From NCBI GenBank assembly GCA_949285455.1, contig CASDXP010000005.1, positions 2,756 through 66,755 of the forward strand: 64,000 nucleotides of DNA. Direction: 5' to 3'. The notes below the pieces were generated by a model. The model saw only the letters and a list, made by a program, of their open reading frames with translations. It ran no database searches and had not been told where the DNA came from. Shown in pieces: positions 3,638 through 59,712 of this stretch. This stretch comes from an uncultured bacterium (GTDB lineage: Bacteria > Bacillota_I > Bacilli_A > RFN20 > CAG-826). Every line of letters begins with the position of its first letter. Position 1 is the stretch's first letter. Position numbers and translations under genes: made by a program.

Positions 3638-3670
3638 GCATTTTGAGAACAGAACTTAACTTTTTTAATT

Positions 3671-3722
3671 TGAACTCGTGAAAATTTGTCGATATTTGAA
3701 AAATGAACTAGTGAAATTTTGT
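3671..3722. repeat. Imperfect 19-bp direct repeat TGAACTCGTGAAAATTTGT / TGAACTAGTGAAATTTTGT upstream of the DUF4143 ATPase gene
   Basis: Copies at 3671..3689 and 3704..3722 (16/19 identical), 44-95 nt upstream of the 3766 start. Confidence 0.45.
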
Positions 3723-3765
3723 AAGATTTTCTTTAAAAAATATGAAAATTAGATAAAATGGAGGT

Positions 3766-5124
3766 GTGAAAAAAATCGTGTTTCCAAGAAAAATTTACGC
3801 TAAGTTGAAGGAGTGGAAAGAAACTTCTAAGGGAAGAAGCGCTCTTTTGATTGAAGGGGCGAGGCGAGTTGGAAAAACATTCGTTGCCACAACTTTTGCT
3901 AAAAATGAATTTTATGAATATGCTCTTATCGACTTTTCTATTGTAGATGATAAATTTAAAAACATTTTTAACGATTTGTCTCATATTGAAAACTTCTTCA
4001 GAGATTTATTTTTAGCCTTAGATCGTAAGCCTTTGAAAAAGGGAAGTTTAATAATATTTGATGAAGTGCAATTTTGCCCAAAAGCTAGGCAGGCTATTAA
4101 GGCTCTCGTCGCGGATGCAAGATATTATTACATCGAAACTGGTTCACTAGTGTCCATCAAAGAAAACACTAGAGATATTTTGCTACCTTCTGAAGAAGAA
4201 GCGATACAAATGCATCCGCTTGATTATGAAGAATTTTTATTGGCAATTGATCAGACTTACGAATTAGAGATATTGAAGGAAGCATATAAAAATCACCAGC
4301 AAATTTCTAATAATTTACATCAAAAATTTATGAAAAATTATCGTTTATATCTTTCCGTCGGAGGGATGCCGCAAGCGGTATTAGCCTATCTTACCAGCAA
4401 GGATTTTTTCCTCGTCGAACGTATCAAATCAAATATCTTAAAACTTTACGAAGATGATTTAAAAAAGATTGATCAAACTTATGGGACTTTTTGTTATAGC
4501 ATCTATTCTCAAATTCCTACAATGCTAACAAAACATTCTTTCAAATTCAAAAATTGTTCAGTTTCATCACGAGTAGATTCCTATGTTTTTAAAAATAGTA
4601 TGAATAAATTAATTGAATCAAAAATTGTCATTCCAGTTTATCGTTGTTTAGATCCGCAAGGCGGTTTTCTACTTAGCAAGGATGATTCGAATTTTAAATT
4701 ATATTTGCTCGATGTAGGTTTATTTACTTCTTTAATTTACGCAAAGGGGCATAACAACCAAGATAGTATCTATCAAAAATTAATTTTAGACGATACGCAC
4801 TTAAATCTAGGAATGCTATATGAAAACGCTATCGCACAAACTCTCGTGGCTAATAATTTCATTCCTTATTACTATCTTTGGATCGATTTAAATGGCAACA
4901 ACACCCCGCATTATTACGAGTTAGATTTCCTTGTTCAAAAGGGTTATAAAATTGTTCCCATTGAAGTAAAATCAAGTCGTAGTTTTGCGATAAAATCTTT
5001 AGATTTATTTGAGAAAAAATATTCTAAAAATATCTTTCATCGTTACTGTATTTCGCCCAAACCAATTAAATATGAAAGTAGTTTAACTTACTTGCCTTTC
5101 TATTTAAGTTTTTGTTTAGAATGA
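3766..5124 (+). CDS. AAA+ ATPase with C-terminal DUF4143 / PD-(D/E)xK-like nuclease-fold domain
   Basis: 452-aa ORF. P-loop GARRVGKT, Walker B IIFDEVQ. C-terminal ELDFLV..IEVKSS is a D..ExK motif. GTG start sits very close to a GGAGG, so the exact start is uncertain. Paralogous to 50168..51463. Confidence 0.65.
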   Translation: MKKIVFPRKIYAKLKEWKETSKGRSALLIEGARRVGKTFVATTFAKNEFYEYALIDFSIVDDKFKNIFNDLSHIENFFRDLFLALDRKPLKKGSLIIFDEVQFCPKARQAIKALVADARYYYIETGSLVSIKENTRDILLPSEEEAIQMHPLDYEEFLLAIDQTYELEILKEAYKNHQQISNNLHQKFMKNYRLYLSVGGMPQAVLAYLTSKDFFLVERIKSNILKLYEDDLKKIDQTYGTFCYSIYSQIPTMLTKHSFKFKNCSVSSRVDSYVFKNSMNKLIESKIVIPVYRCLDPQGGFLLSKDDSNFKLYLLDVGLFTSLIYAKGHNNQDSIYQKLILDDTHLNLGMLYENAIAQTLVANNFIPYYYLWIDLNGNNTPHYYELDFLVQKGYKIVPIEVKSSRSFAIKSLDLFEKKYSKNIFHRYCISPKPIKYESSLTYLPFYLSFCLE

Positions 5125-5179
5125 TAAGATTTAAGACCTTGTTTTTAACTTTTACGTATTAATTATTTAGGAGGAACAT

Positions 5180-37800: not shown

Positions 37801-38106
37801 AGAACCATCACTAGCGATATAGGGAGTAGATATTTTTACATTTTTATTCAATGCTGAAATTGTTCGACTTTGTCCAGATAAGTTTTTGGCTAGAAGAAAA
37901 CTATTTTGAATAGGGACAACACTATTAGAAATATTAATAAAAGAAACTGGATGAGTGTATAATTTTATGTCAAGTTCATTAATTTCTTTAGAATAAATAC
38001 TAGATAATGAAAGTTTTAAGTCCTTATTTTTGTAATCGCCCATATAAGGAATATTCGCGTGATTCTTTTTTAAAAAGATGTCTTTAAAATTAAATTTATT
38101 TTGCAT
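31870..38106 (-). CDS. RHS/YD-repeat polymorphic toxin (2078 aa) with hydrophobic C-terminal extension
   Basis: Very long ORF. Many YD repeats (YTYDDKKRL, YTYDDYDRLTKE, YDANGNLVNRTTYDY). Terminal core ends in the ..NNPIKYVDSSGR.. motif, followed by a 177-aa hydrophobic tail. No N-terminal signal peptide seen. Confidence 0.85.
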   Translation of the reverse strand: MQNKFNFKDIFLKKNHANIPYMGDYKNKDLKLSLSSIYSKEINELDIKLYTHPVSFINISNSVVPIQNSFLLAKNLSGQSRTISALNKNVKISTPYIASDGSTIHNSFSFSLNKDSVSLTCSIYKQIYGVNSSATASRPSPIVYFNGPTTITTSGTIPGPAYTLISTNDGCLLTIPLKTGDSVVSLGFVTSLLMEVDDKKVNFFGTDNGFILEPYLETNDGEISCEDFDVQVVNNLTSSKTIIITANSAYLSTNQSVNLKLYFRYNYVSLIEIKDSNDNYVYPGKTICGYIDSVNNLTKINLNMDEITSLLKDRGNEHFLSFINIKFDASDNVSDLDYIKVSYGETIIANVPINSSHNLLRIDISSFVNDDVKRKEENVTIEPITLTLEYVADNKENNPFIAITNETSFDSENTPNITSKYQSIGDDKNNVIISHNFSHNSSFRANLYTSNLHYEIPLTSIASNALSVNLNFYYDSRNLFRAADKIKGLPKGWAFNLSSRLIKSKQNNIDALQNEIHYIDGNGNIHTFYEKWYYLNNDGSYHLVSNKSVYLDSDQKYKFKDGHGNVHEVTYEVISSNGLTYISSANSLNMASKKEVKLTHHFTYDDPLETIDKVVDENGQIKITSFIGQAKARIDDESEVRSLLSMYFNDVTYAQNEAILQYAVYFPNEVEYKNGSYYLKSSNTKVNPILINCSIAIKEEQYFALIPKYYYKLNTNNKEAYSIATNELELNHYYAKNIDETYIKPDYYENENIVSIESTIEQYESTLKDLTKQAQQYLLSLKQMEEETANQMETMNSVFSELINNEEQITASQINSFNSTSVSYNHQIESIKLSIKDILERIDRYKKDIDYYRTLKANEVLAQKDNAQDFLLSEEGLIFGFDYYGRLIYISDLNENEITLKYIDDNLVEIASSVQTITINYDENGLLSSIIDPNLIETKFKMTRLLTLGDGQDEIIFKGYKGNEEKLTFTYDTYKNLTSVENSNSEKINFIWSEMKFKGYNITNKTLRIEDGLITNKIVDNSSIEDVGVNANNFEITAEDNINNNKTTVYVNKNGDIIYRKNIDLDLLTSSSSYKSYNERNIVFDVSYEERNLLATKNYTNVSYSNGSFTLQILKSEIDFAKKYLLAATIIDFSNITNFDINNENELSIEIIATGDLASYTIHYDRITPQIAIPVFFNNLVSKVTIKITSDLEIPSSFFTNLEVKIYEVIGEINIYDDDLHLLRKLSPSNVIDYEYRNSNLVREVSNDIYGVTAQKKYDYDNYNRLIRTIDNLNNVKEINYDELGFKNKTYQYNLDSPSLKQEKTSVYDELGRLTNEDDYQINYLSNSRYPTTIIGPNNSTLSLGYDIYSQKLVDLSYNDDGLINPIKFNYTSDLLTSMEQDGIIYTYSYDYKHRKTHIKIGESSLYSFAYTSNYSDDLVTNGEKIVTTISPLNYTISSIYDKDSNLIKSTRSDNSTINYTYDDKKRLIKIEKGEESISYTYDDYDRLTKEIDAYDELNVIHTYSFANKNCLDSESINLGDKTISSSYSYDSKTLRLTSITSSNYLANLKSDVFGRLTYNEIKDTNSNVLLRQNLNYFTTDKKTLTNIKLLENIIGSNVYHRYSYDYDKLLNVTKVKSDIGNTYYKYDKVDRLIREDNKELNKTITYSYDANGNLVNRTTYDYTHEDEILLDSTHVDNFYYNVSSNKDILRRVNDKDVTFDALGRLTSYDNHTFVWNNESHLINFDNVSYTYNLNGIRTSKTINGEKTTYYLSNNLILREKSSSKDIEYHYLNKSLIGFTHNGTSYIYEKNIFGDIINIYKQDDLTLVASYEYDAFGNHEVINHTSENIGNINPFRYRSYYYDAESNLYYLNARYYSPFFARFISRDELSILDETKTQLNGLNLYIYCRNNPIKYVDSSGRIWILTALLYGIIFAAISVATLFVTDIIMNLINYQLDFSRWKWSSWQEYLGAFVSGFISGLFAAVSLNHIYYKITRLIVDVVATFAGEIIGSIVTDFLTYGTDMDLFTSFMNGVVSGISTNIFGELTNGMDKIFGRLIARLGTSITPKFLEIISDKFENLISDFLNSSMYGIIENNKN

Positions 38107-42304: not shown

Positions 42305-42501
42305 TTGCTTATAACTACTATATTAACCTGGGAAATTCCGGTAAATGTACCTAGAAAATTCCGAATTTTCATAAAATCATGAACGTTTTACATAGTAAAC
42401 AAACTAAGAATATTAACAACAATTATAAAATTTTCTAGTTTACACTAGAGTGAAAAGAATGTAATATATATAGCGTTATCGAAAGAAAGGGATAAAAAGA
42501 T

Positions 42502-46478: not shown

Positions 46479-47645
46479 ATGAACATTATTAAATATGTCG
46501 AAAAATGGGGGCAAGTTTCCTTTCATAAAAGGCCGTTAAATGAAGTGGATAGTTTAATTTTATCTTGCTTATCTTATTTTCATTGGGAAGAGCTCGTCCC
46601 GCATATCGACGAAGATAAGCCTGGTTTATTAATTGGTGATATTTTCGCTAATAAGAAAACATTCGAGACGCTTATCGCTGGTTCGATGATGAATCCTAAA
46701 AAAGACCAAAAACTCTTGTTAGCCTTGATGCATTCGCCAAGATTTTCTCACCTAAAACTTAATTATTATCAATCGATTTTTAATAAAGATAATAATGAAC
46801 AATTCGCCGCTATTACTTTCGTTTACGAAGATTTCTTCCTCATCGCTTTTAGAGGAACAGATCAAACATTAACGGGTTGGAAAGAAGATTTTGAAATGGC
46901 GATATTAAATGAAGTGCCTGCGCAGGCGGATGCTTTAAATTATGTTCGCAAAGTTGCTTCTAAAGAAAAATTGCAAGAGATGAAATTTTATATGTCCGGC
47001 CATTCTAAAGGTGGGAATTTAGTCATGTATGCGGCGACGAAGATGGATTTAGATTTAAAAGAAAGATTAATCATGGCTAGGTCGCACGATGGTCCAGGCT
47101 TCAAAGATTACGATGCGCATATCGATAATTTAATTCCTATCATCAATAAGACTTCTTCAACTGTACCTTATTCTTCTTTAATTGGAACTTTATTAGGTTT
47201 TAGAAGAGATTCAAAAATTGTCGATGCAAAATCTTATTTTATTTTGCAACATATTCCTTACACATGGAAAATTAATAGAAAAACAGGAGATTTTGTCTAT
47301 TTAACTTATCGATCTAAAACGTCTTATAAAGCTGAAATATCGATGACCCGTTTCATCCATTCTTTAAGCGAGGAAGAAAAGAAGAAATTTATCGACATTG
47401 TTTTTTACGTTTTGGATAATGAAAACAATTCTTTAAGCGCAATATTAAAAAAGCCATTTAGAAGTGCGATTAATATGCGTAAGCACTATAAAAAATTAAG
47501 CGAGGAAGAAAGACAATTTGTCAAATTTGTCTTGAAGCGTTTAAGAATGTATTGGAAAGAAGCATTCTTAGATAAATTAACTTATAAGAAAAAACCGATA
47601 GATAAAGCATATCGTGATTTCGTCATTTTCGATGAATGGAATTAA
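46479..47645 (+). CDS. DUF2974/Mbeg1-like alpha/beta-hydrolase (lipase-like) protein
   Basis: 388-aa ORF. GHSxG nucleophile elbow (MSGHSKGG). Confidence 0.5.
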   Translation: MNIIKYVEKWGQVSFHKRPLNEVDSLILSCLSYFHWEELVPHIDEDKPGLLIGDIFANKKTFETLIAGSMMNPKKDQKLLLALMHSPRFSHLKLNYYQSIFNKDNNEQFAAITFVYEDFFLIAFRGTDQTLTGWKEDFEMAILNEVPAQADALNYVRKVASKEKLQEMKFYMSGHSKGGNLVMYAATKMDLDLKERLIMARSHDGPGFKDYDAHIDNLIPIINKTSSTVPYSSLIGTLLGFRRDSKIVDAKSYFILQHIPYTWKINRKTGDFVYLTYRSKTSYKAEISMTRFIHSLSEEEKKKFIDIVFYVLDNENNSLSAILKKPFRSAINMRKHYKKLSEEERQFVKFVLKRLRMYWKEAFLDKLTYKKKPIDKAYRDFVIFDEWN

Positions 47646-47714
47646 ATAATTGCTATAATATAAGTTGGTTTTAAAATTATTCACTATATTTCTGAAAGGA
47701 GTTAAGAAAAAAAT

Positions 47715-48461
47715 ATGATGAAATTAGTGCTCATCCGCCATGGCGAAAGCTTATGGAACAAAGAAAATTTATTTACAGGTTGGACCGATGTCGACCTATC
47801 GCCAACCGGAGTGGAAGAAGCTAAAGGAGCGGGTCGTCTTTTAAAACAATTAGGCTACGATTTTGATATTTGTTACACCTCCTATTTAAAAAGAGCGATT
47901 CACACCTTAAATCACGTCTTAGATGAATTAGATAGGGATTGGCTTCCGGTCGTCAAAAACTGGCGATTAAATGAAAAACATTACGGAGCGTTACAAGGCT
48001 TAAATAAAGCTGAAACAGCGACAAAATATGGCGAAGCTCAAGTGAAGCTTTGGCGACGTTCTTTCGACGTTTGTCCACCGGCTTTAGAAGAAGATGATCC
48101 TCGCTCTCCTTACGTCGCGGATATGTATCGTAACGAAGATAAGAAAGATTTGCCTTTAACTGAATCTTTAAAAGAAACTATTACTAGAACAGTACCATAT
48201 TTTAATGAAGTGATTAAAAAGGATATGGAAAAAGGCAAGAGAGTTTTAATCGTTGCACATGGAAATTCATTGAGATCGCTCGTCAAATATTTTGATAAAT
48301 TAAGCGATGCAGAAATAATCGATGTCAACATTCCTACTGGCGTTCCTCTCGTCTACGAATTCGATGATAAATTTAACGTCACTAAAAAATATTATCTTGG
48401 TGATCAAGAAGAACTAGCGAAGAAGATGAATGCTGTTAAAAATCAAGGAAAAGCTAAATGA
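47715..48461 (+). CDS. gpmA: 2,3-bisphosphoglycerate-dependent phosphoglycerate mutase
   Basis: 248-aa ORF. N-terminal [10 protein letters not shown] catalytic His motif. Conserved dPGM core. Confidence 0.9.
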
Positions 48462-49930
48462 TGAAAAAAGTTCCCCCTCTCGTTTTATTTGCAACTTTAT
48501 TAACGAGCGTTTCTAGTTGCGGGCCAAGCCCCTTACCAGATCCAGATGTTCCACCTGAAGGGAAAGCTTACATCGACATCTTACAAATTAATGATTTCCA
48601 TGGCAAGATGGTTCGAGATGAAGAATCTAAAGATCCAGGAATTGCCCGCATTTCACGTTATATTAAAGCAAGGAAGGCGAGAAACCCTGATGGTTTAGTG
48701 CTCCTAAGTGGGGGCGATATGTGGCAAGGTTCAAGTGCCTCTAATTCGAATAAAGGCAAACTTGTCAATGAATGGATGAACCTCATGGAATTTGACGCTA
48801 TGACGCTTGGCAACCATGAATTCGATTGGGGCATCGATAATATTAAAGCTATAAAAGAAGAGGCAAATTTTCCTTTCTTAGGGGCAAATATTATCGATTA
48901 TGAAACGAAAGAAAGACTCGATTTTGTCGAACCTTACACTATCATCGAAAGACTCGGTTTTAAAATTGGTGTCATCGGCATCATCGGCGAGGACCAATGG
49001 GAAGATATTTATTCTCAATATGTCGTCGATTTAGAATTTGCGACACCTGTTAGTTACGTTCAAGAACTTTCTTCAACTTTAAAAGAAGAGAAAGATTGTG
49101 ACATCGTCGTCTTAAGCATGCATGAAGGGCACGGCACATCTTATATCAACCAATACGTGAATATGGTCGATGTCATTCTATGCGCGCATGACCATGAAAC
49201 TTATCTTTCGAATGAAAAAGGTGTTTACGTCATCAATTGTGGGGTGGATGGACATCATATGTCCGCGATTCGTTTCGAAGTTGATTTAGCGAGTAAAGAA
49301 TTTAATGTCATCGAAGATGAAACGATGTATACACCAGATGATTATCTATATGAATATGACGCAGATCCTGATGTCGATGCATGGTTTAAAGAAAGATATG
49401 ATACTTCGATTGACAAAGAAGTGATTGGAAGGCTAGAAGATGGCGAATTGAGTGATACTGGTGCTTCTGATTTAAGTGTCTTAGCCATCTATGACCACGT
49501 CAAAAATGATTTAGGTTACGATGTCGTTTACGCTTTCGATACACGCGCACAGAGAGGTACGATTTATGAAGGTGATATCACTTATGAAAGACTTTATAAA
49601 GTCATGCCTTTCGATAACGATATCGTCATCTTATCTTTAACTGGTAGCCAAATAAATTCTTTGAAGAGCGGGAATGCATTCTATCGCCCAGAAAAGATAA
49701 CTTTTGAAAGTGATAAAACTTATCTCGTCGCTTCTTCCAATTTCATCGCTTATCGGATGTCAGAAAATAGAAATTATACTGGTATTCCTAATTTTGATCC
49801 TGCGACGCAAGTAGTGGAATATTTAGAAGGAACTTATCCACGTGAGCTAGTTAAATCTTATTTAAAAGAACACGGAAGCGTTTCGAAAAAAGATTTCTCT
49901 AATTTTCACTTCAGTGATTTCTATCTTTGA
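48458..49930 (+). CDS. Bifunctional metallophosphatase/5'-nucleotidase-family lipoprotein
   Basis: 490-aa ORF. Lipobox VSSCG. Calcineurin-like motifs (DFHG, GGDMWQG, GNHEFD). C-terminal 5'-nucleotidase substrate-binding domain. Confidence 0.7.
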
Positions 49931-49956
49931 TCCTTTATCTTTAAAAAAATAATTTT

Positions 49957-49985
49957 AAGTCTCACTTAACAAAGTGGGACTTTTT
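49957..49985 (+). terminator. Rho-independent terminator after the 5'-nucleotidase gene
   Basis: AAGTCTCAC...GTGGGACTT stem with one G-U pair, followed by TTTTT. Confidence 0.6.
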
Positions 49986-50030
49986 CTTAAAATTAAAAAT
50001 TTGCTACTTTAACTTAGGAAGCGAAATATC

Positions 50031-50036
50031 TATAAT
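50031..50036 (+). promoter_or_regulatory. Candidate -10 element (TATAAT) for tRNA-His
   Basis: Perfect TATAAT ends 10 nt before the tRNA 5' end. No convincing -35 element. Confidence 0.35.
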
Positions 50037-50046
50037 ATTATTCACT

Positions 50047-50124
50047 GGCGAATGTGGTGAAGTGGTTAACACAACCGGCTGTGAACCGGTCATTTCGCGG
50101 GTTCAACTCCCGTCGTTCGCCCCA
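50047..50124 (+). tRNA. tRNA-His (anticodon GTG) with encoded G-1 and 3' CCA
   Basis: Cloverleaf folded by hand. 8-bp acceptor stem GGCGAATG/CGTTCGCC (G-1:C73, one G-U). Anticodon stem CCGG/CCGG with loop CTGTGAA. T-arm GCGGG-TTCAACT-CCCGT. CCA at 50122..50124. Confidence 0.8.
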
Positions 50125-50135
50125 AATAGTATATT

Positions 50136-50159
50136 ATCTAGGCTTTGCCTAGATTTTTA
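50136..50159. terminator. Bidirectional terminator (ATCTAGGC ttt GCCTAGAT + T-run) shared by tRNA-His and the convergent ATPase gene
   Basis: 8-bp perfect stem. T-run on the plus strand and A-run upstream (T-run for the minus strand). Confidence 0.65.
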
Positions 50160-50167
50160 TTAAAATT

Positions 50168-51463
50168 TTAGATACAAAACGCTGCGTAAAGAGGAATTGT
50201 TTTATTATCATCTTCAAAGGCAAAATTTTTACTCGATAGTTTGATAGCGTAAGCGGGCTTATAAGCATCCATATAAACTTTTAATCTTTTAGCTTTGCTA
50301 TTATCAGCGGATTTGACTTCGATGGGAATAAGTTTACCTTCACGTTGAATGATAAAATCTATTTCCGCTCCACGGTCGGATTCCCAATAGTAGGTGTTAT
50401 ATCCGTTGATGGAAAGTTGGACGTTAGCGTAGTTTTCAGCCATACCTCCTTTGAAGTCATTTAATTCCGGAGTCATATAAAAAATATCGTCAGGAGTTAA
50501 ATCTTTCTTCGCGGAAAGTAAACCTAAATCCGATACGTAAATCTTGAAGGCATCGATGTCACGATAATTTTCTAAAGGTTTTTTAATTTGTTCGACTTTA
50601 TAAACTTTCGATACGATACCAGTTAAACTAAGCCATTCGATAGCGTTTTCAAGCTCGGAAGCTCGACCGCCTTTTTTGACTAACTTATATTGAAAACGAG
50701 TATTTTTCTTAGAGAGTTGGACCGTAATGTTATCGTAGACGAGTCTAGTTTTTTTAATTTCATTTAAGTTGTTATATTTGCTCATATCATCAAGATAACT
50801 TGTAAGGATATTATCTTGCGTATGGCGTACAAGAATATAGTCTTTCGTCTCCACGAATTGTCTGACGCACTCTGGCATTCCACCTACGATGAGATATTGG
50901 CGGTAGAGTTCCATCGCCTTATTGTGAAGAGCGGAAGGCATAGGTGAATTAGTGTTAAAATACTTTTTAATTTGCGTTACAAGATCATCTTCTTTCATCG
51001 CGATCATAAATTCTTCCATGTCCATAGGATACATAGTTTTCATATCGACTTTACCGACGGGAAAAGAAAATTTTGAACGATTGACCGCCACACCCAAAAG
51101 ACTTCCAGCGACGATAATGTGATAATCAGGGGCCTCTTCGCAAAAATATTTTAATGAGGTCAAAGCTCTTTCACAAAGTTGTATCTCATCGAACACGATG
51201 AGCGTTTTTTCTTTGACGATCGTTTGCCCGGCAATATGAGATAAAATCGGTATCAAATATGTAGGGCTAATATTTTCTTCAAAAGTTTCATTTAGCTTGG
51301 GATTAGTTTCAAAATTAAAGTAGGCGACATTTTCATAATGGCTACGCCCAAACTCTAAAATAGAGTAGGTTTTACCTACTTGCCTCGCTCCTTGTAAAAT
51401 GAGAGGCTTACGATATTTGCTTTCTTTCCACGCTTCTAAAAAGTCGATGATTTTTCTATACAT
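50168..51463 (-). CDS. AAA+ ATPase with C-terminal DUF4143/PD-(D/E)xK-like domain (paralog of 3766..5124)
   Basis: 431-aa ORF. P-loop GARQVGKT, Walker B IVFDEIQ. C-terminal EIDFII..IEVKSA is a D..ExK motif. Confidence 0.65.
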   Translation of the reverse strand: MYRKIIDFLEAWKESKYRKPLILQGARQVGKTYSILEFGRSHYENVAYFNFETNPKLNETFEENISPTYLIPILSHIAGQTIVKEKTLIVFDEIQLCERALTSLKYFCEEAPDYHIIVAGSLLGVAVNRSKFSFPVGKVDMKTMYPMDMEEFMIAMKEDDLVTQIKKYFNTNSPMPSALHNKAMELYRQYLIVGGMPECVRQFVETKDYILVRHTQDNILTSYLDDMSKYNNLNEIKKTRLVYDNITVQLSKKNTRFQYKLVKKGGRASELENAIEWLSLTGIVSKVYKVEQIKKPLENYRDIDAFKIYVSDLGLLSAKKDLTPDDIFYMTPELNDFKGGMAENYANVQLSINGYNTYYWESDRGAEIDFIIQREGKLIPIEVKSADNSKAKRLKVYMDAYKPAYAIKLSSKNFAFEDDNKTIPLYAAFCI

Positions 51464-51826
51464 AATCTAGTTTCCTCGAATGTAATATAAAACATATTCG
51501 TGTAGAAATCAATGTTTTTTATTTCAGTTTTTACATTAAAATGCACGAATATTTTTAAAAATTATACATTATTTGACACGAATATTACATGGAATAATTA
51601 CTACACTTATAATTAAGTGTGTTAATCATAGTATTGTGTTTGTGTGATGATTTGAATAATCTTTTCAAAGTGCGTGAAGAAAATATAATGAGTTTATGAT
51701 CAAGAAAATTGATGTTGGTACTTTATAAAAACGATATCGATAAGTATTCTCATTATTAAAAATTAGTAAAGTTTAATCATTTATTTTTTAAAATATTATA
51801 TATTATAGTTAAATTAGATATGTAAA

Positions 51827-51894
51827 AGTTTTAGGAATGAAATCCAAAAACTTGTAAAAAAGAAGAAGTTTTAGGAATGTAATCCAAAAACTTG
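51827..51894. repeat. Two tandem 28-bp copies (40-bp period) of an imperfect palindrome AGTTTTAGGAATG[A/T]AATCCAAAAACTTG
   Basis: Copies at 51827..51854 and 51867..51894 differ at one position. Each has 10-bp arms AGTTTTAGGA/TCCAAAAACT with one mismatch. Lies 47-114 nt upstream of the ATPase gene at 51941, in the divergent intergenic region. Confidence 0.6.
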
Positions 51895-51940
51895 AAAAAA
51901 TAATTTATTTGATTATATTATTTATTAGGAGGGCAAAAGT

Positions 51941-53149
51941 GTGAAAATTGAGCGAAAAGATTATTTAGAAAAATTAATTGCACTTAAAGATAAGCATCTT
52001 ATCAAAATCATCACTGGCGTGCGTCGATGCGGTAAGTCGACATTGTTTGAAATTTATCAAGATTATCTTCTCACCCATGGCGTTTTAGAAGATCAAATCA
52101 TCAGCATCAATTTTGAAGATTACGATTACGAAGCTTTGAAGGAGCCTAAAAAACTATATGATTACATCAAAGATAGACTGATTGATGATAAGAAAATGTA
52201 CATATTTTTAGATGAAATTCAAAATGTGAAAGATTTTCATAAAGTCGTCGATAGTTTGTTCATTAATAAGAATGTTGATCTCTACATTACTGGCTCGAAT
52301 GCTTACTTGCTTTCGTCTGAGATTGCTACTTTAATTTCTGGGCGTTACATCGAAATAAAAATGTTACCTCTTTCATTTAAAGAATATGTTTCTAGTAGCG
52401 GTAGTGAAATTGATTTAGCAAATAAATATCGAAAATACATTGAATTTAGTTCTTTTCCTTACGTTTTAGAATTAGATGAAAATAAGGATATTATTAAAGA
52501 TTATTTAGAAGGCTTATTAAATACAATTGTTTTAAAAGATGTCGTTCAGAGAAATAAAATATCGAACATTTTACTATTCAAAAGTGTTTTACGTTTTATC
52601 TTTGATAATATTGGTTCTCAATTATCTAGTAAAAAGATTGCGGATACGTTAACCTCAAGCGGAAGAAAAGTGGATTCTAAGACGGTTGAAAAATATCTTC
52701 AAGCGTTGATGGAGTGTTACGTAATTTATCAAGCGAGTCGCTACAACATCAAAGGAAAAGAATACTTAAAAACACTAGATAAATATTATGTTGTGGATAT
52801 TGGCTTAAGATATTCTTTATTAGGCACGAGTTTTCGCGATAGCGGACATATATTAGAAAATGTCGTTTATTTAGAACTATTAAGAAGGGGACAAGAAGTT
52901 TATATTGGTAAAATTAACGATTTAGAAGTCGATTTTGTTGCGATGTCTAAAAACAACATGACTTACATCCAAGTAGCGGCTTCTATCAAAGATGAAAAAA
53001 CGTTAGAAAGAGAACTTATCCCATTAGAAAAAATTGATGATTCATATCCTAAATATATTTTGACGTTAGATGATGCGCCAGAGGCTAATTATAAAGGAAT
53101 TAAGATCGTCAATGCTTTGGATTGGTTACTAGGTAAAGTTTGGCCTTAA
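51941..53149 (+). CDS. AAA+ ATPase (AAA_14-like) with C-terminal DUF4143/PD-(D/E)xK-like domain, distinct subfamily
   Basis: 402-aa ORF. GTG start 7 nt after AGGAGGG. P-loop GVRRCGKST, Walker B IFLDEIQ. C-terminal DLEVDFV...IQVAAS. Confidence 0.65.
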   Translation: MKIERKDYLEKLIALKDKHLIKIITGVRRCGKSTLFEIYQDYLLTHGVLEDQIISINFEDYDYEALKEPKKLYDYIKDRLIDDKKMYIFLDEIQNVKDFHKVVDSLFINKNVDLYITGSNAYLLSSEIATLISGRYIEIKMLPLSFKEYVSSSGSEIDLANKYRKYIEFSSFPYVLELDENKDIIKDYLEGLLNTIVLKDVVQRNKISNILLFKSVLRFIFDNIGSQLSSKKIADTLTSSGRKVDSKTVEKYLQALMECYVIYQASRYNIKGKEYLKTLDKYYVVDIGLRYSLLGTSFRDSGHILENVVYLELLRRGQEVYIGKINDLEVDFVAMSKNNMTYIQVAASIKDEKTLERELIPLEKIDDSYPKYILTLDDAPEANYKGIKIVNALDWLLGKVWP

Positions 53150-53247
53150 TTAAGTCAAAAATATTATTAAAAAATTTATGAATTAAAATTCTAATTAAGG
53201 AAAATGGCAGCGATTTTACTTTTTGTTATACTTATAAAATGAAACAT

Positions 53248-53541
53248 TTATGCCTTTAAACACCCTATTGGGACAACTTTTATTCCATCTTCTCTTGTAT
53301 ATGCTATTTCTCCACCAGTGATGATCATGAGCAAATCTGGTTCTTTGATATTTTTGTTCTCGTTTTTTGCATTTGAAATTAGCTCTTTTAACTTTAAAAG
53401 ATGCTTTGCGCTTTCTTCAATTTGTTTATTACCTAATTTAAACTCAATCAAGGCGTAGCAGCCAACAATCAAAACTGCGCCAACACTATCTAGCATTTCT
53501 TCTAATATATTGTCTAAATATCTAGGGAAATATTGTTCCAT
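53248..53541 (-). CDS. Small PD-(D/E)xK-like protein (possible nuclease-domain remnant)
   Basis: 97-aa ORF. ..D-x13-IEFK.. (D..ExK-like) motif resembling the C-terminal domain of the neighbouring DUF4143 ATPases. No upstream ATPase part. Confidence 0.3.
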   Translation of the reverse strand: MEQYFPRYLDNILEEMLDSVGAVLIVGCYALIEFKLGNKQIEESAKHLLKLKELISNAKNENKNIKEPDLLMIITGGEIAYTREDGIKVVPIGCLKA

Positions 53542-53595
53542 TTTAAAAAATCACCCAACAAATTAACAACAAATTGATAATGAAAAGTTAACACA

Positions 53596-53657
53596 AATGT
53601 AGTTTTTTTCTGTAATTCAATGTAGTTTTTTTCTGTAATTCAATGTATATTTTTTCC
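53596..53657. repeat. Tandem direct repeat AATGTAGTTTTTTTCTGTAATTC x2 plus a partial third copy
   Basis: Perfect 23-bp units at 53596..53618 and 53619..53641, then a degenerate AATGTATATTTTTTCC. Lies upstream of the minus-strand ORF at 53541. Confidence 0.55.
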
Positions 53658-53756
53658 CATTTTAAGATTTTATTTAAAAATTTAGAAATATATCTATGAG
53701 TTTAAATATAATGTCTTGTTTGTAAGTTAAATCGCGTTTTATTTATAAGTAATTAA

Positions 53757-55169
53757 CTAAATATCTTTAATTAAATTCTTATTTTTCCAATTTCCTTTTT
53801 TCCAACGAATATAGAATGCGAGTGCGCGAATACATTCATCTAGACACGCACCGATGAAGGCACCATATATGCCTAGATTACAAACGATAGAAAGTAAAGC
53901 GCTTAACCCAACTGTAAAAAGCCAAGAAGTGGAAACGCTCATGATGACAGGAAAAGCAATGTCACCTGCAGTTTCTAAGCCTTTAACGTACACTAGATTT
54001 GTCGCTCTTCCTTGCTCTAATAAAACATTTATCGATAAACATATAAGTGCAGCGATACCGCAATATATCAAGCTCATTCCCTCGGTATTAATTGTTGGGT
54101 TATCGATAGCGGGAGCCATAATGGAAGTGAAGACAGGATAAGCGATAGCGAGAACAATTAAAGATAAGAAAAAAGAAATGAGACGCGACATACGTCCGAC
54201 ATCATAAACGATCTTATTTGCCGCTTCCTTATTATTTTCTCCAAGTAATGTTCCTTCTATGACTTGCATTGCAAGTCCTACTCCTTGTGCAAATAGATAA
54301 ATAATAGAAGTAAAAGTCATGATGTAAGTGCGAAGATTTTGATCGAGAACACTACAAGAATAATTAATGATGATCATCAAAACGAATTGAGAAAGATTAT
54401 AAGATAAAGTTTCTCCGGCGGTAGGAAGACCAATTTTTAATTGCCTTTTTAAAAGTAAAGAAGGGAAGGGCTTAAGTTCTTTTAAAGATATTTTGGTTTT
54501 AACTTTCACTTTAAAAAATATGTAAGAAATAATAAGCGATAAAAAGCGTGAGATAAAAGTAGCTAGACCTACCCCAATGATTTTTCCATCTAAATCTAAG
54601 TTTGGTATACCCCACAAGACAATTGCGACGATGATAATATTGATGACACCCATAAATATGGAAATAAGAGTTGGTTCAATCATTCTTTTATTCGCTCTTA
54701 AAAAATTAGAAAAAGCTTGATTTAAGGAATAAAAAATAAGTGATGGAGCGCTCACATATAAATATAACTTCGCATAAGGAATAATATTTATATCCACCTG
54801 CATCCAATCGAAAATAAATGGAGCAATAGCGATTAAAATAATAGCCACTAAAATGCCTAATATTAAGTTTAAGAAAATGGTTAACGGATAGATTTTTTTA
54901 ATGCCACTTTCATTATGTGCACCGCGAAGTTGAGCGATAAGAATAAGTGACGATGTAGCGAGGACGCTAAAAGAGACGATAAAAATATTTGATATTTGAT
55001 TCACTTGACCAATTGCGTTCGTGCCTTCAGGAAAAGAAGCGAACATGAATTGGTTAATATAACCAATGCCAACGGTTAAAATTAACTCGACGATGATAGG
55101 CAAGGCGAGTTTTAAGACATTTTTATTTTCTTTAAATAATTTGATGTAGTGAAAGCCATGCGTCTTCAT
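53757..55169 (-). CDS. MATE-family multidrug/oligosaccharidyl-lipid efflux transporter
   Basis: 470-aa ORF with 12 predicted TM helices in a two-lobe MATE-like arrangement. Confidence 0.75.
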   Translation of the reverse strand: MKTHGFHYIKLFKENKNVLKLALPIIVELILTVGIGYINQFMFASFPEGTNAIGQVNQISNIFIVSFSVLATSSLILIAQLRGAHNESGIKKIYPLTIFLNLILGILVAIILIAIAPFIFDWMQVDINIIPYAKLYLYVSAPSLIFYSLNQAFSNFLRANKRMIEPTLISIFMGVINIIIVAIVLWGIPNLDLDGKIIGVGLATFISRFLSLIISYIFFKVKVKTKISLKELKPFPSLLLKRQLKIGLPTAGETLSYNLSQFVLMIIINYSCSVLDQNLRTYIMTFTSIIYLFAQGVGLAMQVIEGTLLGENNKEAANKIVYDVGRMSRLISFFLSLIVLAIAYPVFTSIMAPAIDNPTINTEGMSLIYCGIAALICLSINVLLEQGRATNLVYVKGLETAGDIAFPVIMSVSTSWLFTVGLSALLSIVCNLGIYGAFIGACLDECIRALAFYIRWKKGNWKNKNLIKDI

Positions 55170-55414
55170 AGAATAAAGATTTTAGCAACATATTTTATAT
55201 TAGCAATAGCAAATATAAGAAAAAGTGAAAAAATATAATTGATAAATTCATCTATAACACGTTTTACAAAAAAGAAAAATTTAACCGCAAAAATATTTAA
55301 AAATAAAAGTTTTGCGATTTAACTAAAAATTAAAGTCCTTAAGATTAAATCATTTTCTTTTGCATAAATAAAAGATTAAGTTATATGTTCTAATTGTTGA
55401 AAGGAAGAAAAAAT

Positions 55415-56107
55415 ATGATTGAACGTGCTTTTGTTACTTGTCACATGTATGTTCCAATGGATGACAAAATTGAAACGGAAATCAAAGATTATCCTGATTG
55501 TGAAGTCGCTGGTGAAATTTATGATCAAATTACTTTTTCATCATCGAAGGCGTGGGGATGTGGAATAGCTACTTTTCAATATCTAAGTGACGAAGTAGCG
55601 TCTTTAGAAAGCTATGAACCTTACGCAGGTGAATTAAAAGATCACTTCATCAAAGATGAAATCTATTGTTTTGCTTTCGATAGATTAGGTAAATTATTTT
55701 TTAAAGATACTTATAATGATTACGCTAATAAGAAGTCACGTTTCGTTTCCGTTTTGACGCATAATGTCGATCGGCGTTTCATCACTTATTTAAATAAGAA
55801 AGGTATTTCATATATTTTTGCTGGTGAAAAAGATTTGGACTTACCCTTATTTTTAAAGAAAATCTACGATTTAGGAATAAAGCATTTTTATCTTTGCGGT
55901 GGGGCTCAAATAAATGCATTATTTATGGAACAAGATTTAATTGATGAAATTTCTTTAATAATCGCACCTGGAGTGCAAGGCGGAAGAAAAGAAGTGACGT
56001 TCGTAGGAACGGAGGACGTGTCTAAATTTCCTAAATACTTTAAAATAAAAGAAGTTAAAGTTTTAGATGGTGATACAGTTCATCTCATTTACGAAAGGAA
56101 GGATTAA
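55415..56107 (+). CDS. RibD C-terminal domain / dihydrofolate-reductase-like family protein
   Basis: ATG 55415 after AAAGGAAG. Rossmann-like ..HFYLCGGAQINALFMEQDLIDEISLIIAPGVQGG.. pattern of the RibD_C/DHFR-like family. Confidence 0.55.
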   Translation: MIERAFVTCHMYVPMDDKIETEIKDYPDCEVAGEIYDQITFSSSKAWGCGIATFQYLSDEVASLESYEPYAGELKDHFIKDEIYCFAFDRLGKLFFKDTYNDYANKKSRFVSVLTHNVDRRFITYLNKKGISYIFAGEKDLDLPLFLKKIYDLGIKHFYLCGGAQINALFMEQDLIDEISLIIAPGVQGGRKEVTFVGTEDVSKFPKYFKIKEVKVLDGDTVHLIYERKD

Positions 56108-56110
56108 CTT

Positions 56111-56575
56111 ATGAAAATTCTTATCACTTACGTCTCTTTTTCTGGCGTTACAAAAAAAGTTGCTTTACGTTTAAAAGAAATGTTAGGGGCGGATGAAGAA
56201 GAAATTGTTCCAAGCAAGGCTTATATTTTAGAAGATTTAAACTGGAACGATAAATATTCTCGCTCATCCATGGAGATGAACGATGAAAAATCTCGCCCTA
56301 GTTTTAAACCGTTAACATTAGACCCCTTAGCCTATGATGTTATCTTCATCGGCTATCCTATTTGGTGGTACGTCGAACCACGTCTCATCGATACATTTTT
56401 AGACTATTACGATTTAAAAAATAAAATAATTGTTCCTTTTGCCACAAGCGGGAGCAGTGGGATTGCTGGAAGTCTTACCCACCTGCGTAATTTATATCCA
56501 TCTTTAAATATCAAAGAAGGATTATTACTTAACGATTACATCGATGAAAATAAAATTAGAGCTTTGATGTCATGA
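56111..56575 (+). CDS. Flavodoxin-like protein
   Basis: 154-aa ORF. N-terminus MKILITYVSFSGVTKKVA is a flavodoxin FMN-binding loop. Confidence 0.55.
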   Translation: MKILITYVSFSGVTKKVALRLKEMLGADEEEIVPSKAYILEDLNWNDKYSRSSMEMNDEKSRPSFKPLTLDPLAYDVIFIGYPIWWYVEPRLIDTFLDYYDLKNKIIVPFATSGSSGIAGSLTHLRNLYPSLNIKEGLLLNDYIDENKIRALMS

Positions 56576-57000
56576 AAAAAATATTTGCTTTTGCCTTACT
56601 AAGCACTTTTGCTTTGATGAGTTGTTATAATGCGAATTTAAAAGAAGAAATGGTCATAGAAATTGCTGGTGAAAGAAGAACCTTAACCTTAGAAAATAAT
56701 GATAGCGTTAATGCATTAATTTCTTTAATATCCACGAACGACGGAAAATTAAGCCTCACTTTTAGCGATTATGGGGGCTTTGAAAAACTTACTAATCTTA
56801 ATACAACTCTTCCTTCAAATGACGTTAAAGTCGTCACTGAACCTGGCGACATCGTCTTATATCAAAGTTCACATTTAGTCATCTTCTATGGCTCTAATAG
56901 TTGGTCGTATACACGCATAGGAAAAATTGATGATACTTCGGACTTATCTTCATTTTTAAAAGAAGGGGAAGAAGTAAATATCGATTTTCTTTGCGTTTAG
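56572..57000 (+). CDS. Cyclophilin-like-fold lipoprotein (DUF-type, commonly paired with flavodoxin genes)
   Basis: 142-aa ORF. Lipobox LMSCY. ..IEIAGERRTLTLENNDSVNALISL..GDIVLYQSSHLVIFYGSNSWSYTRIGKID.. matches the cyclophilin-like family. 4-nt overlap with the flavodoxin gene. Confidence 0.5.
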   Translation: MKKIFAFALLSTFALMSCYNANLKEEMVIEIAGERRTLTLENNDSVNALISLISTNDGKLSLTFSDYGGFEKLTNLNTTLPSNDVKVVTEPGDIVLYQSSHLVIFYGSNSWSYTRIGKIDDTSDLSSFLKEGEEVNIDFLCV

Positions 57001-57069
57001 ATTTCAAGAAGAGAATTTATCGATATTTGTACTAAAAAATAAATTTAACTTGCCATATTTGAACAGTTA

Positions 57070-57819
57070 TTGTTTAATTTAGGTATGAAAGTCTTACCAA
57101 TTTTATTTTCATATGATGATATAAAAGATAAATATCCAAACGTTAATGGTTTCTATTCGTTTTTGAAGCGTTCGATAAAAAAAGGCACTATCAAGCAAGT
57201 TAAAAAAGGACTTTATGCTTTAATAGATCCATCTACTGGAAACATATATGCGACGAAGTTTCAAGTCGCTAGTGCTCTTTTTGATGATTCTTATTTTTCA
57301 TATCATGAAGCTTTGGAGTATTATGGCTTAGCATCGCAATCATTTATTTCACAATTTATTTATCTAAGTAAAAATCACGCAAACGATTTTGAATTTGAAG
57401 ACGTTATTTACCATTCAAAAATAAGTCGATGCAATTTAGAAATTGAAGATCATATGAAGGAAAATGCTATAAGAGTAGTGTCTTTAGAACGTGCGATAGT
57501 GGATTCAATCGACAATTTTCATTTAAGTGGTGGGCTAGAAGAAGTGGAACTTGCGTTAGATAGTTGTCCTAAACTTGATACTCGAAGAGTGATGTCACTT
57601 CTAAAATTTTATGATAAAATTTTCCTATATCAAAAAGTAGGCTATCTATTCGAAAAACATTTTGGTGACGCTATCCCGCGATCATTCTACGAAGAATGTT
57701 CATCTAAAATAGGCACTAAAAAAGTGTATTTAGAGTGTGCGCCTGGAAAATCAAAATTTATATCCAAATGGAATTTATTTATTGAAGACAAAGGAGAAAC
57801 ACCTAATGAATTATTCTAA
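57070..57819 (+). CDS. AbiEi-like antitoxin (second copy)
   Basis: 249-aa ORF. ..VKKGLYALID..YFSYHEALEYYGL.. parallels the AbiEi at 25236. Overlaps the downstream nucleotidyltransferase pseudogene by 14 nt. Confidence 0.55.
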   Translation: MFNLGMKVLPILFSYDDIKDKYPNVNGFYSFLKRSIKKGTIKQVKKGLYALIDPSTGNIYATKFQVASALFDDSYFSYHEALEYYGLASQSFISQFIYLSKNHANDFEFEDVIYHSKISRCNLEIEDHMKENAIRVVSLERAIVDSIDNFHLSGGLEEVELALDSCPKLDTRRVMSLLKFYDKIFLYQKVGYLFEKHFGDAIPRSFYEECSSKIGTKKVYLECAPGKSKFISKWNLFIEDKGETPNELF

Positions 57820-58747
57820 AATTTACGTAAGTGAAATTTCAAAGAGAACAGGATTCATTGCAAGTAACGTCGAAAAAGCGATCCGACTCCTCGACGTTCT
57901 AGATTTTATTTTTAATAAAAGTAGTTTTTGCGATGCTCTCACCCTCAAGGGAGGCACGGCAATTAATCTCATATACACTAATTTAAAGCGTCTTTCTGTG
58001 GATATTGATTTGGATTACCATCGTTATTTAGAGAAAGAAAAAGTCGAAAAAGATAGACAACTTATCATTGGAGAACTTGATGAGTATATGAAAAAAGAAG
58101 GCTATTTTGCTAAGTCTGTTAGAGATAGCGCAATTTCATCATCTAGAATTTAGGCGTACTTAAACACCTTTGGAAACAATGACAATATAAAAGTGGAAAT
58201 TAATTTTATTAATCGAATTAGCCTTTATCCTACTATTACAACCATCGTTAATTATTTTAATAAAGAAGTGCGCGTTAATGTATTAAGAAAAGAAGAATTG
58301 TACGGAATGAAAATTGCCGCTTTGATTGATAGAAGTAAGCCAAGAGATTTATTTGATATTGCTTATCTAATCGATAATTTAAAAGATGTAGACATGTGTA
58401 TTCTTGCAAAAGCAGCTATTTTTTATCTCTCGCTAGACGGCATTTATACTATCGACAATTCAATTTGTGATGGAATCAAAAGCATAACTTATCAAGCGGT
58501 AAAAAAAGAATTATTGCCGGTATTAAAAAAAGGTGAAAGATTCGATGTTGTTATTGTTAAGGAAAAAGTTATAAAAAATGTTTGTTCCCTATTAACTAAG
58601 AATCAAGACAACTTATCTTATTTAAAAGAATTTTCCGAAGGAAATTTTAACCCATACATATTATTTGATAGTAAGCTGCTAATAGAGCAACAAAACATCC
58701 CATGGCTCAATGGAAAATTTCAAATATTAAATAATTATCCAAATTAG
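57806..58747 (+). pseudogene. AbiEii-like nucleotidyltransferase interrupted by an in-frame TAG (58151..58153)
   Basis: ATG 57806 after AAGGAGA. N-terminal part carries the nucleotidyltransferase motif LKGGTAINLIY..RLSVDIDLDY. ORFs 57737..58153 and 58193..58747 are in the same frame, separated only by one TAG codon. Confidence 0.5.
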
Positions 58748-58835
58748 TATTAGATTAAAAAAATACTCATTTTAAACTTAGGGGAAAAGTTCCCTAACTT
58801 TTAAATAATAAATTATTTATAGATGAAATTTCATT

Positions 58836-58866
58836 AAAAATAGGAGCGGTTAACTCCTATTTTTTA
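58836..58866. terminator. Bidirectional terminator AATAGGAG cggttaa CTCCTATT flanked by A- and T-runs
   Basis: Perfect 8-bp stem. Serves the convergent AbiE remnant (+) and Mrp gene (-). Confidence 0.65.
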
Positions 58867-58884
58867 AATTCTTAGTGTTATAAG

Positions 58885-59712
58885 TTAATTAACTTCTTTC
58901 TTAATAAGTTCGACAAGTTCATCAAAATAATGATCTTGTACTAGTTCAATTTTACCTTCATCGCACAGCTTAGCGATATCTTGTTCAATTGGTAAAGTAA
59001 CTAATACTTTCGCTTCGACCTTATCTTTTAATTCTTTAGAAGCGCTGGGGAAAAGATAAATCTTCTCTTTACAGTGTGGGCAAATCGCGTAACTCATATT
59101 CTCGACGATACTTAAGATGGGAATGTTCATCTCTTTTGCCATGTTGATGGCTTTCATGACGATCATCGAGACGAGGTCTTGAGGGGTGGTGACGACAATT
59201 ATTCCATCTAATGGGATAGATTGATAAATTGTTAAAGGAACATCTCCTGTGCCTGGAGGTAAATCGATCAATAAGACATCTAGTTCATCCCAGACGACAT
59301 CTTCGTAAAATTGTTTAACTACACCTCCGATGATAGGGCCTCTCCAAATGAGAGGGGTTTCTTCGTCATCCAATAAGTTATTAATAGATATAACTTTAAT
59401 TTCTAAGTTAGTTAAAACAGGTAAAATTAATTTTTCATTTAAAGCAGAAGCCTTTTCTTTTAAACCGAACATCTTAGGGATAGAAGGACCGGTAACATCT
59501 GCGTCTAAAATACCTACTTTTAGACCTGATTTCGCTAAAGAGGTGGTGAGGTGAGAAGTGACCATCGATTTACCAACCCCGCCTTTACCAGACATCACAG
59601 CATATATTTTCTTAATGTGACTTAATTCATTCAGATGTGCGTGGAAATCAACTTCTCTTTCACTACAATTTTCGACGTTACAACCAGCACATTGATGATT
59701 ACAATCGCTCAT
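58885..59712 (-). CDS. Mrp/ApbC-family Fe-S cluster carrier ATPase
   Basis: 275-aa ORF. Deviant Walker A SGKGGVGKS. Conserved CxxC (CPHC). N-terminal Cys-rich segment. Confidence 0.8.
   Translation of the reverse strand: MSDCNHQCAGCNVENCSEREVDFHAHLNELSHIKKIYAVMSGKGGVGKSMVTSHLTTSLAKSGLKVGILDADVTGPSIPKMFGLKEKASALNEKLILPVLTNLEIKVISINNLLDDEETPLIWRGPIIGGVVKQFYEDVVWDELDVLLIDLPPGTGDVPLTIYQSIPLDGIIVVTTPQDLVSMIVMKAINMAKEMNIPILSIVENMSYAICPHCKEKIYLFPSASKELKDKVEAKVLVTLPIEQDIAKLCDEGKIELVQDHYFDELVELIKKEVN

Follow-up and report, generated by a model that had tools for sequence, protein, structure and literature searches.

DUF4143 ATPase-family genes beside tRNA-His in an uncultured Bacilli_A bacterium: a variable locus and the spaced repeats upstream of its genes

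A stretch of 64,000 nucleotides from an uncultured bacterium (GTDB lineage Bacteria; Bacillota_I; Bacilli_A; RFN20; CAG-826; assembly GCA_949285455.1, contig CASDXP010000005.1, positions 2,756 to 66,755 of the forward strand), called the window below, carries between its positions 50,047 and 53,657 a tRNA-His gene followed by two genes, A and B, whose products join an AAA+ ATPase domain to a DUF4143 domain, and by the remnant of a third gene, C. The locus raises the question of what such genes are doing beside a tRNA: an earlier note, made from the letters alone, had seen an accessory patch at the tRNA and suggested a conflict or defence role. The explanation put forward here, which is favoured as probable taken as a whole, is that the interval is a variable spot holding single-gene cassettes, each with its own repeat array, whose products would be self-regulated, ATP-switched DNA binders with a role in conflict. 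The parts of it that concern the family, the ATPase motifs, the nuclease sites, the purifying selection, the horizontal spread of A and the repeat arrays can be stated with high confidence.

Family membership, motifs and predicted folds

Gene A (50168..51463, minus strand) encodes 431 amino acids (aa) and gene B (51941..53149, plus strand) 402 aa; they are divergently transcribed from either side of a 477-bp spacer, and both products are arranged as AAA_14, winged helix and DUF4143, with a canonical PD-(D/E)xK nuclease site in A and a non-canonical one in B. Profile annotation with Pfam places both domains above their gathering cut-offs (27 bits for AAA_14 and 28.1 bits for DUF4143) in both proteins, with AAA_14 scoring 90.9 bits in A (E 9e-26) and 119.1 bits in B (E 2e-34), and DUF4143 scoring 106.9 bits (E 1e-30) and 78.5 bits (E 6e-22), respectively. 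The two proteins are barely alignable by BLASTP and are homologous along their entire length by profile–profile comparison (hhalign probability 98.6%). The paralog of A that the earlier note had placed at 3766 is a 452-aa gene (3766..5124, plus strand) lying between comFA/comFC-like genes and ABM/secA; it has both domains (AAA_14 74.9 bits, DUF4143 56.9 bits) and an intact D..ExK motif, and its identity to A amounts to 29% (E 9e-50).

Both proteins match PADLOC models of the candidate defence family PDC-S01 (AAA_14 plus DUF4143; COG1373) over their full length, A the model PDLC04786 (577 bits, residues 1-431) and B the model PDLC04787 (533 bits, residues 3-398), so that the idea of a defence role is already in the literature. 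It has been reported that PDC-S01 is an ATPase fused to a PD-(D/E)xK domain, that it awaits validation, and that it ranks as the fourth commonest defence call in prokaryotes, counted about 29,000 times in bacteria and 10,000 times in archaea (PMC12988326). DUF4143 itself was assigned to the PD-(D/E)xK superfamily in 2012, with its function unknown (PMC3424549). A and B share with PDC-S01 the ATPase plus PD-(D/E)xK architecture (PMC12988326) and the character of a widespread, horizontally transferred, single-gene system. They differ from it in that the prediction of PDC systems started from genes lying inside BREX, DISARM and type I restriction-modification loci (bioRxiv 10.1101/2024.01.29.577857), whereas the window genes are not embedded in defence loci and B-type proteins are without ExK. 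A and B are thus ordinary members of a known candidate defence family, which makes the locus itself unsurprising. PDC-S01 is a very common candidate, and the comparison offers a concrete handle on it in the arrays described in the next section, in the division into two subfamilies and in the recurrence of its genes as cargo beside large serine recombinases.

The family falls into two subfamilies, one with the canonical nuclease site (A-type) and one with a variant site (B-type). Over 43 A-type sequences, Walker A (G25..G30-K31 in gene A), Walker B (D92-E93) and the nuclease residues E343, D369 and E382-x-K384 are all invariant. Over 23 B-type sequences, the ATPase motifs are likewise invariant together with E306, E329 and D331, and the ExK position is held by an invariant Q344-V-A346; this reading is given by the 23-sequence alignment, by the profile–profile comparison, in which hhalign sets Q-V-A of B under E-V-K of A, and by the predicted structure of B, in which Q-V-A lies on strand beta-3. 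Walker A of the form G-x-R-x-x-G-K-(T/S) and the Walker B D-E are invariant in both subfamilies, and the canonical PD-(D/E)xK residues are also kept in the 3766 paralog and in the C remnant. The D..ExK motif that had been read in both genes therefore holds for A and fails for B, and proteins of the B subfamily may not cut DNA.

AlphaFold models of both proteins are of usable quality (A: pLDDT, the predicted local distance difference test, 81 and predicted template modelling score, pTM, 0.83; B: pLDDT 82 and pTM 0.85), and in both of them the C-terminal part runs helix, three strands, helix, strand, which is the order of the restriction-endonuclease fold. Compared with the Protein Data Bank (PDB) by Foldseek, the model of A has as its top match an archaeal Orc1/Cdc6 bound to origin DNA (2qby_A, E 6e-7), with further matches to NLRP, ORC, RFC, RuvB, Apaf-1, Avs5 and TnsC. 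The top matches of B are Cdn1 (E 3e-6), Cdc6, Apaf-1, ORC and Can2 (E 4e-4), with 1fnn_A and 2qby at E 8e-6 to 1e-4. At template modelling scores (TM-scores) of about 0.3, these matches of predicted structures are a resemblance of the ATPase, lid and winged-helix module and not a membership. Sequence searches of A and B against PDB chains gave nothing meaningful (best E 0.2-0.3), neither Pfam nor NCBIfam returned a Cdc6/ORC family match for either protein, and the only NCBIfam match of A was a sub-threshold one to YraN.

Spaced repeats upstream of the family genes

Every family gene in the window has its own short repeats upstream. When the intergenic regions of 60 bp or more in the window, 28 in all, were ranked, the three top local direct repeats were those that precede C, B and the 3766 paralog.

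Before gene A, the motif ACACGAATAT lies within the 17-bp spacer of a putative promoter (51494..51503, minus strand), about 40 nt before the start codon, the promoter hexamers (-35 TTGATT, -10 TATATT) having been read by eye. Two more copies, GCACGAATAT at 51543-51552 and ACACGAATAT at 51576-51585, lie 33 bp apart on the plus strand (51543..51585), so the array consists of (G/A)CACGAATAT twice at a 33-bp distance plus an inverted copy in the putative promoter spacer. The exact 10-mer has no other occurrence in the 64-kb window, and in a distant host a Clostridiales homolog 85% identical to A (locus L044) has ACACGAACAT in the equivalent promoter spacer. Similarly, the 3766 paralog is preceded by GAACTCGTGAAAATTTG (3672-3688) and GAACTAGTGAAATTTTG (3705-3721), again 33 bp apart. 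Gene B is preceded by two 28-nt imperfect palindromes (AAGTTTTAGGAATGAAATCCAAAAACTT; 51826..51893, plus strand), 40 bp apart, which abut its putative -35 element (TTGAAA, 51892). These palindromes are kept in the relatives L038, L040 and L180, are reduced to a single copy in L002, and are also found upstream of a 78% identical homolog in a different genomic context (L183, L185). As for gene C, a perfect 23-nt tandem repeat lies upstream of its remnant (53596..53641) and is the top local direct repeat of all the ranked intergenic regions; related, longer repeats precede the intact C gene in L001 and L040.

The spacing is a property of the family and can be seen well beyond the window. For A-type genes, 52 distinct upstream regions were taken from homologs 25-88% identical to A, and their offset profile has peaks at 33 bp, where it reaches 10.4 (mean 3.8), and at 66 bp. 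When window gene A and the 3766 paralog are included, a score of at least 9 is reached by 35 of the 54 regions, as against 2 of 186 controls. A-type genes thus carry two to three direct repeats with a 33-bp period. For B-type genes, 36 distinct 150-nt upstream regions from homologs 31-56% identical to B give a mean repeat score that peaks at one offset only, 40 bp, where it is 5.6 over a background of about 3.6, and none of the 121 controls from the same loci reaches a score of 9 at that offset. The B-type units are palindromes whose inner bases vary between homologs and whose second copy abuts the -35 element. Motif similarity rises with protein identity (Mantel test, observed value reached in 0 of 2000 permutations), only above about 60% identity, from which it appears that the spacing is conserved while the sequence drifts.

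Evenly spaced upstream repeats that are specific to each gene point to self-regulating DNA-binding proteins, and self-regulation of the genes through their arrays is the probable reading. In the literature searched on DUF4143 and PDC-S01, no mention of upstream 33-bp and 40-bp repeat arrays was found, and as far as that literature shows the periodic arrays are new. They predict a DNA-binding specificity for each gene, and if they are the proteins' own binding sites, they would lead in a simple way to the recognition code of this abundant uncharacterised family and to what triggers it.

Two other identities for the repeats were considered and rejected. That the gene B palindromes act in RNA, as hairpins or terminators, is contradicted by their place upstream of the best promoter match and by the lack of a T-run. 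A CRISPR-like mini-array does not fit units of 10-28 nt in two to three copies with a period of 33 or 40 bp. In addition, an Rfam search of positions 49800-53800 (E up to 1) found the tRNA as its sole match, and the 477-bp spacer between A and B is accordingly without a known RNA.

Variation between tRNA-His and mrp, and movement of the genes

The left landmark of the variable interval is tRNA-His (anticodon GTG; 50048..50124, plus strand), called by ARAGORN as the single tRNA of the window and matched by the Rfam tRNA model with 59 bits; its right edge is an mrp/ParA-like gene (58885-59712). The patch itself starts 44 nt past the tRNA. Together with the Pfam results, these calls bear out the earlier note's description of tRNA-His followed by two divergent DUF4143 AAA+ genes. 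The terminator that the note took the two genes to share with the tRNA is a real hairpin followed by TTTTTATT (50136..50154, plus strand), intrinsic-terminator-like for tRNA-His and 13 nt from the stop codon of A; the sharing was not borne out, since the terminator scan places the T-run and the call only on the plus strand, that of the tRNA, and none was called there on the minus strand for gene A. The 97-aa ORF beyond B (open reading frame; 53248..53541, minus strand), rightly described as a remnant, has no family match of its own. By BLASTP, its residues 1-26 match residues 19-44 of an intact 445-aa AAA_14/DUF4143 protein of L001, and its residues 27-97 match residues 375-445 of that protein (96% identity). 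The ORF is therefore what an in-frame deletion has left of a third gene, C, namely the first 26 and the last 71 codons; the junction located by blastn shows that the internal deletion, of 988 bp, is identical in the window and L038.

Five relatives were compared (L001, L002, L038, L040 and L180), all of which have tRNA-His at the equivalent position and share the flanks gpmA, 5'-nucleotidase and tRNA-His on one side and MatE, flavodoxin and mrp on the other. Between these flanks the family genes differ one by one. The window and L038 have A, B and the C remnant and lack gene D, a fourth ATPase gene that is 46% identical to B; L002 has A and B and lacks both C and D; L040 has A, B, intact C and D; L001 lacks A, has B without its N-terminus and has intact C and D; and L180 has B and lacks A, C and D. 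The indel of A covers window positions 50179-51823 and so takes in both the gene and the control region before it. Next to secG, the relatives L038, L040 and L180 have a fifth gene for a DUF4143 ATPase, E (426 aa); the window lacks it, and at the corresponding site (42368-42427) 58 bp of unrelated sequence take the place of about 1.3 kb. Just before this site, the window has two palindrome-containing repeats, CCTGGGAAATTCCG and CCTAGAAAATTCCG, 23 bp apart (42327..42363, plus strand), which precede gene E in L038, L040 and L180; the operator-like repeats have been kept although gene E is gone, and they look like an orphan control region. Neither target-site duplications nor terminal repeats were seen at the junctions of cassette E and of the A indel.

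The genes are therefore accessory, as the earlier note had held: A is absent from two relatives, B is truncated in one, and C is intact, a remnant or absent. The reading towards which it leaned, a classical genomic island that would have entered the tRNA-His 3' end as a single block through site-specific recombination, fits a patch that starts so close to the tRNA and differs in content between relatives. B-type homologs are also found just downstream of tRNAs elsewhere, of tRNA-Asp and tRNA-Phe in L183 (the 78% B homolog, 3478-5198) and of tRNA-Gln in L067 (4630-6296). However, searches of the 64-kb window for the tRNA-His 3' end as a 25-mer and a 16-mer, allowing up to 3 mismatches, together with a repeat finder, returned only the tRNA itself; Pfam scans of the ORFs from 50168 to 59712 found no integrase or recombinase; and the relatives differ by single-gene indels and decay, not by presence or absence of a block. 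A position near a tRNA is not a trait of the family either: among 60 other loci of the family, a tRNA lies within 5 kb in just 2. An integrated island is thus largely refuted already and very improbable. The absence of att repeat and integrase and the gene-by-gene differences indicate a persistent variable spot in place of tRNA-targeted integration: the interval from tRNA-His to mrp is a long-lived variable spot in which solitary single-gene cassettes are gained, exchanged, truncated and deleted singly.

Several other differences were observed around this spot. Over the 9 kb of 47520-56582, from gpmA to flavodoxin with A, B and the C remnant in between, identity to L038 is 98%, against 82-90% in the flanks on both sides, which suggests that homologous exchange has recently carried the whole block from one lineage to another or else that the assembly is chimeric. 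In L001, a 126-aa ORF without a Pfam match (MANKEFKNIEEF..., L001:3773-4153) stands in place of A and the 5' end of B. The place of the RibD_C gene (55394-56107) is taken by D in L001 and L040, and L180 has 36- and 64-aa fragments of RibD_C; about 48 bp (55272-55319) align on either side of D in L001 and may be a flanking direct repeat. Further right, a segment of roughly 1.8 kb that is absent from all five relatives carries an AbiE type IV toxin-antitoxin/abortive-infection pair (57070-58747), in which AbiEi is intact (57070-57819) and AbiEii is broken up into two ORFs (57737-58153, covering profile positions 1-106, and 58193-58747, covering 131-299) and is hence probably a pseudogene.

A and B are under purifying selection, with a ratio of nonsynonymous to synonymous divergence (dN/dS) of 0.08-0.11, similar to that of the neighbouring 5'-nucleotidase gene. 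Their synonymous divergence (dS) is out of line with the flanks, which points to allelic exchange: between L002 and L040, it is about 0.1 in gpmA and 5'-nucleotidase and about 0.3 in A and B, and between the window and these two relatives, it is about 0.8 in gpmA and 5'-nucleotidase and 0.26-0.46 in A and B. Gene A also spreads horizontally, including to Clostridiales loci with integration and phage genes. Thousands of its homologs are 84-86% identical to it, and those with a named source are all from Clostridiales/Roseburia. For instance, in one Clostridiales species an A homolog stands alone between proS and an ABC transporter gene, where nucleotide similarity ends at the bounds of the ORF and the guanine-cytosine (GC) content of the gene is 36.7% against 42.9% for its context. 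Counting this proS/ABC locus and at least four more in IMG/VR contigs, the gene is found in at least five contexts; in some of these it adjoins a large serine recombinase and a transposase, or has tail-fibre-like and integrase genes nearby. Of the 142 distinct neighbours that directly adjoin family members in IMG/VR, 14 are large serine recombinases, which are the commonest family by far, and the family can be described as recurrent cargo beside these enzymes. In the IMG/VR loci with serine recombinase neighbours (L049-L179; e.g., L104:1-1500 and L049:2820-4385), the ATPase gene could be end-of-element cargo or a marker of a chromosomal attachment site.

The same data bear on whether A and B are ordinary core genes with a housekeeping role in DNA metabolism. 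Both genes lie next to tRNA-His in three of the five relatives, with no att repeat, and the purifying selection on them is strong; against this stand the relatives without A, the truncated B, the variable or decayed C and D, the 85% identical copies next to recombinases in a different bacterial class, and dS values that disagree with those of the flanking genes. The core-gene account, already refuted by the relatives that lack the genes, can hardly be correct. It could also be supposed that A and B form a two-part system, with B as a nuclease-dead sensor or regulator and A as the cutting enzyme under a shared divergent control region. The divergent pair does recur in the window, L002, L038 and L040, and ExK is found in A only, but in Clostridiales the homologs of A stand alone, B is present without A in L180, neither gene is intact in L001, AAA_14 proteins make up only 2 of the 142 immediate neighbours in IMG/VR, and each gene has a separate promoter and distinct repeats. 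Such a partnership is accordingly highly unlikely, and A and B are better regarded as separate cassettes.

Proposed mechanism and comparison with known systems

In the mechanism proposed here, a cassette would consist of one gene, its own promoter and its own evenly spaced repeats. The winged helix of the protein would bind the repeats of its own gene, and ATP binding to the Orc1/Cdc6- or STAND-like module (STAND, signal transduction ATPases with numerous domains) would drive co-operative assembly on the array and set the expression of the gene. The same ATP-switched, sequence- or structure-specific DNA binding would then be turned on foreign DNA, which the C-terminal nuclease of A-type proteins would cut; B-type proteins would either cut with their atypical site or only bind. 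Conflict with mobile DNA is the most likely role of the genes, whether as anti-phage or anti-plasmid defence or as exclusion carried by mobile elements; defence in itself is a candidate role, put forward tentatively at somewhat under even chances.

Precedents for the single steps can be found in several known systems. Orc1/Cdc6 proteins bind repeated DNA elements beside their own genes. The structures of Orc1/Cdc6 (PDB 2qby, 1fnn) are the best or near-best match for the N-terminal roughly 300 residues of the window proteins, covering the AAA+ core, the helical lid and the winged helix; the difference lies in the lack of sequence-level membership, in TM-scores of about 0.3 and in the C-terminal restriction-endonuclease fold that the window proteins add. 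Similarly, NLRP, Apaf-1, plant NLRs and Avs5, all STAND proteins, are among the fold matches. MalT, a STAND protein, assembles in an ATP-dependent manner on arrays of asymmetric repeated promoter boxes, and these box arrays resemble the direct 33-bp arrays of A-type genes. Unlike STAND proteins, the window proteins have no C-terminal repeat sensor domain, are 400-450 aa long and have the fused nuclease fold as their effector, and the likeness is one of fold only.

The CRISPR-associated Rossmann fold (CARF) nuclease effectors Can2, Card1 and Cdn1, which belong to type III CRISPR systems, also place a nucleotide-binding alpha/beta sensor before a PD-(D/E)xK-type nuclease, and Cdn1 and Can2 are among the matches of B. 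The sensor here, however, is a P-loop ATPase, the TM-scores are 0.2-0.3, and the window shows no CRISPR association. Meanwhile, the genes for the antitoxin AbiEi and for the controller (C) proteins found in restriction-modification systems are mobile and potentially toxic, and they have paired dyad-symmetric operators by the promoter, by way of which their products control themselves. These paired operators resemble the two palindromes before gene B; the products are small, separate regulators, whereas the putative DNA-binding domain is here predicted to lie within the ATPase-nuclease itself.

Several points weigh against this explanation. The activities on which it depends, namely DNA binding, ATP hydrolysis, nuclease action and defence, are predicted for every member from sequences and models. 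The one PDC-S01 member assayed in the literature did not protect E. coli B from T4, T5 or T7 (bioRxiv 10.1101/2024.09.26.614923). In the window, known defence genes are represented nearby only by the degraded AbiE pair 4 kb away, and the immediate neighbours (MatE, RibD_C, flavodoxin) are ordinary. Gene A is without a family in PHROGs, and because IMG/VR contigs may include host DNA flanking prophages, "phage-borne" is not proven for its homologs. As for the arrays, shared ancestry could explain a link between motif and protein that is confined to identities above about 60%; under ungapped scoring, a clear array is missing from most of the upstream regions of B-type genes and from roughly one in three of those of A-type genes; a host regulator could bind the repeats in place of the gene's own product; and a nuclease bound at its own promoter would need a means to spare it from cutting.

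Some of these points would also suit genes that protect no host. The proteins could be selfish or purely regulatory, that is, self-regulating DNA-binding ATPases kept by horizontal transfer or addiction, with the nuclease fold serving their own maintenance or vestigial as in B. The number of diverged paralogs close together in the lineage (A to E and the 3766 paralog make six distinct genes within about 60 kb, of which the window has three intact), their solitary positions in housekeeping neighbourhoods, the missing catalytic Glu and Lys of the B subfamily, the negative phage assay and an operator-like array for each gene all agree with this. On the other hand, a dN/dS of about 0.1 means purifying selection as strong as on the neighbouring metabolic genes, the family was first picked out inside loci of BREX, DISARM and type I restriction-modification systems (bioRxiv 10.1101/2024.01.29.577857), and the examined indel junctions show no transposition or homing apparatus or target-site duplications. 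A selfish or purely regulatory nature is therefore rather unlikely, and a role in conflict with mobile DNA is preferred.

A wider conjecture, which is doubtful although conceivable, is that DUF4143/PDC-S01 proteins are a large unrecognised class of ATP-switched sequence-specific binders that would assemble head-to-tail on spaced sites, in the manner of Orc1, MalT and the plasmid Rep proteins on iterons, and that the paralogs of one genome would make up a nuclease-coupled recognition repertoire against invading DNA.

A few minor observations concern more distant neighbours. Downstream of the 78% B homolog in L183 (6230-12840), there is a 1500-aa AAA_11/AAA_12 (Upf1-like) helicase gene and a gene for a 703-aa protein without a family match, and this segment may be another conflict locus. 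In the window, an Mbeg1-like gene (PF11187; 46479-47645) between a PAP2 gene and gpmA is missing from all five relatives, its absence giving a clean junction at 46505/47520. Upstream of the region lie a 2078-aa minus-strand ORF (31870-38106) and a gene for an 858-aa Big_2-type surface protein (39661-42237).

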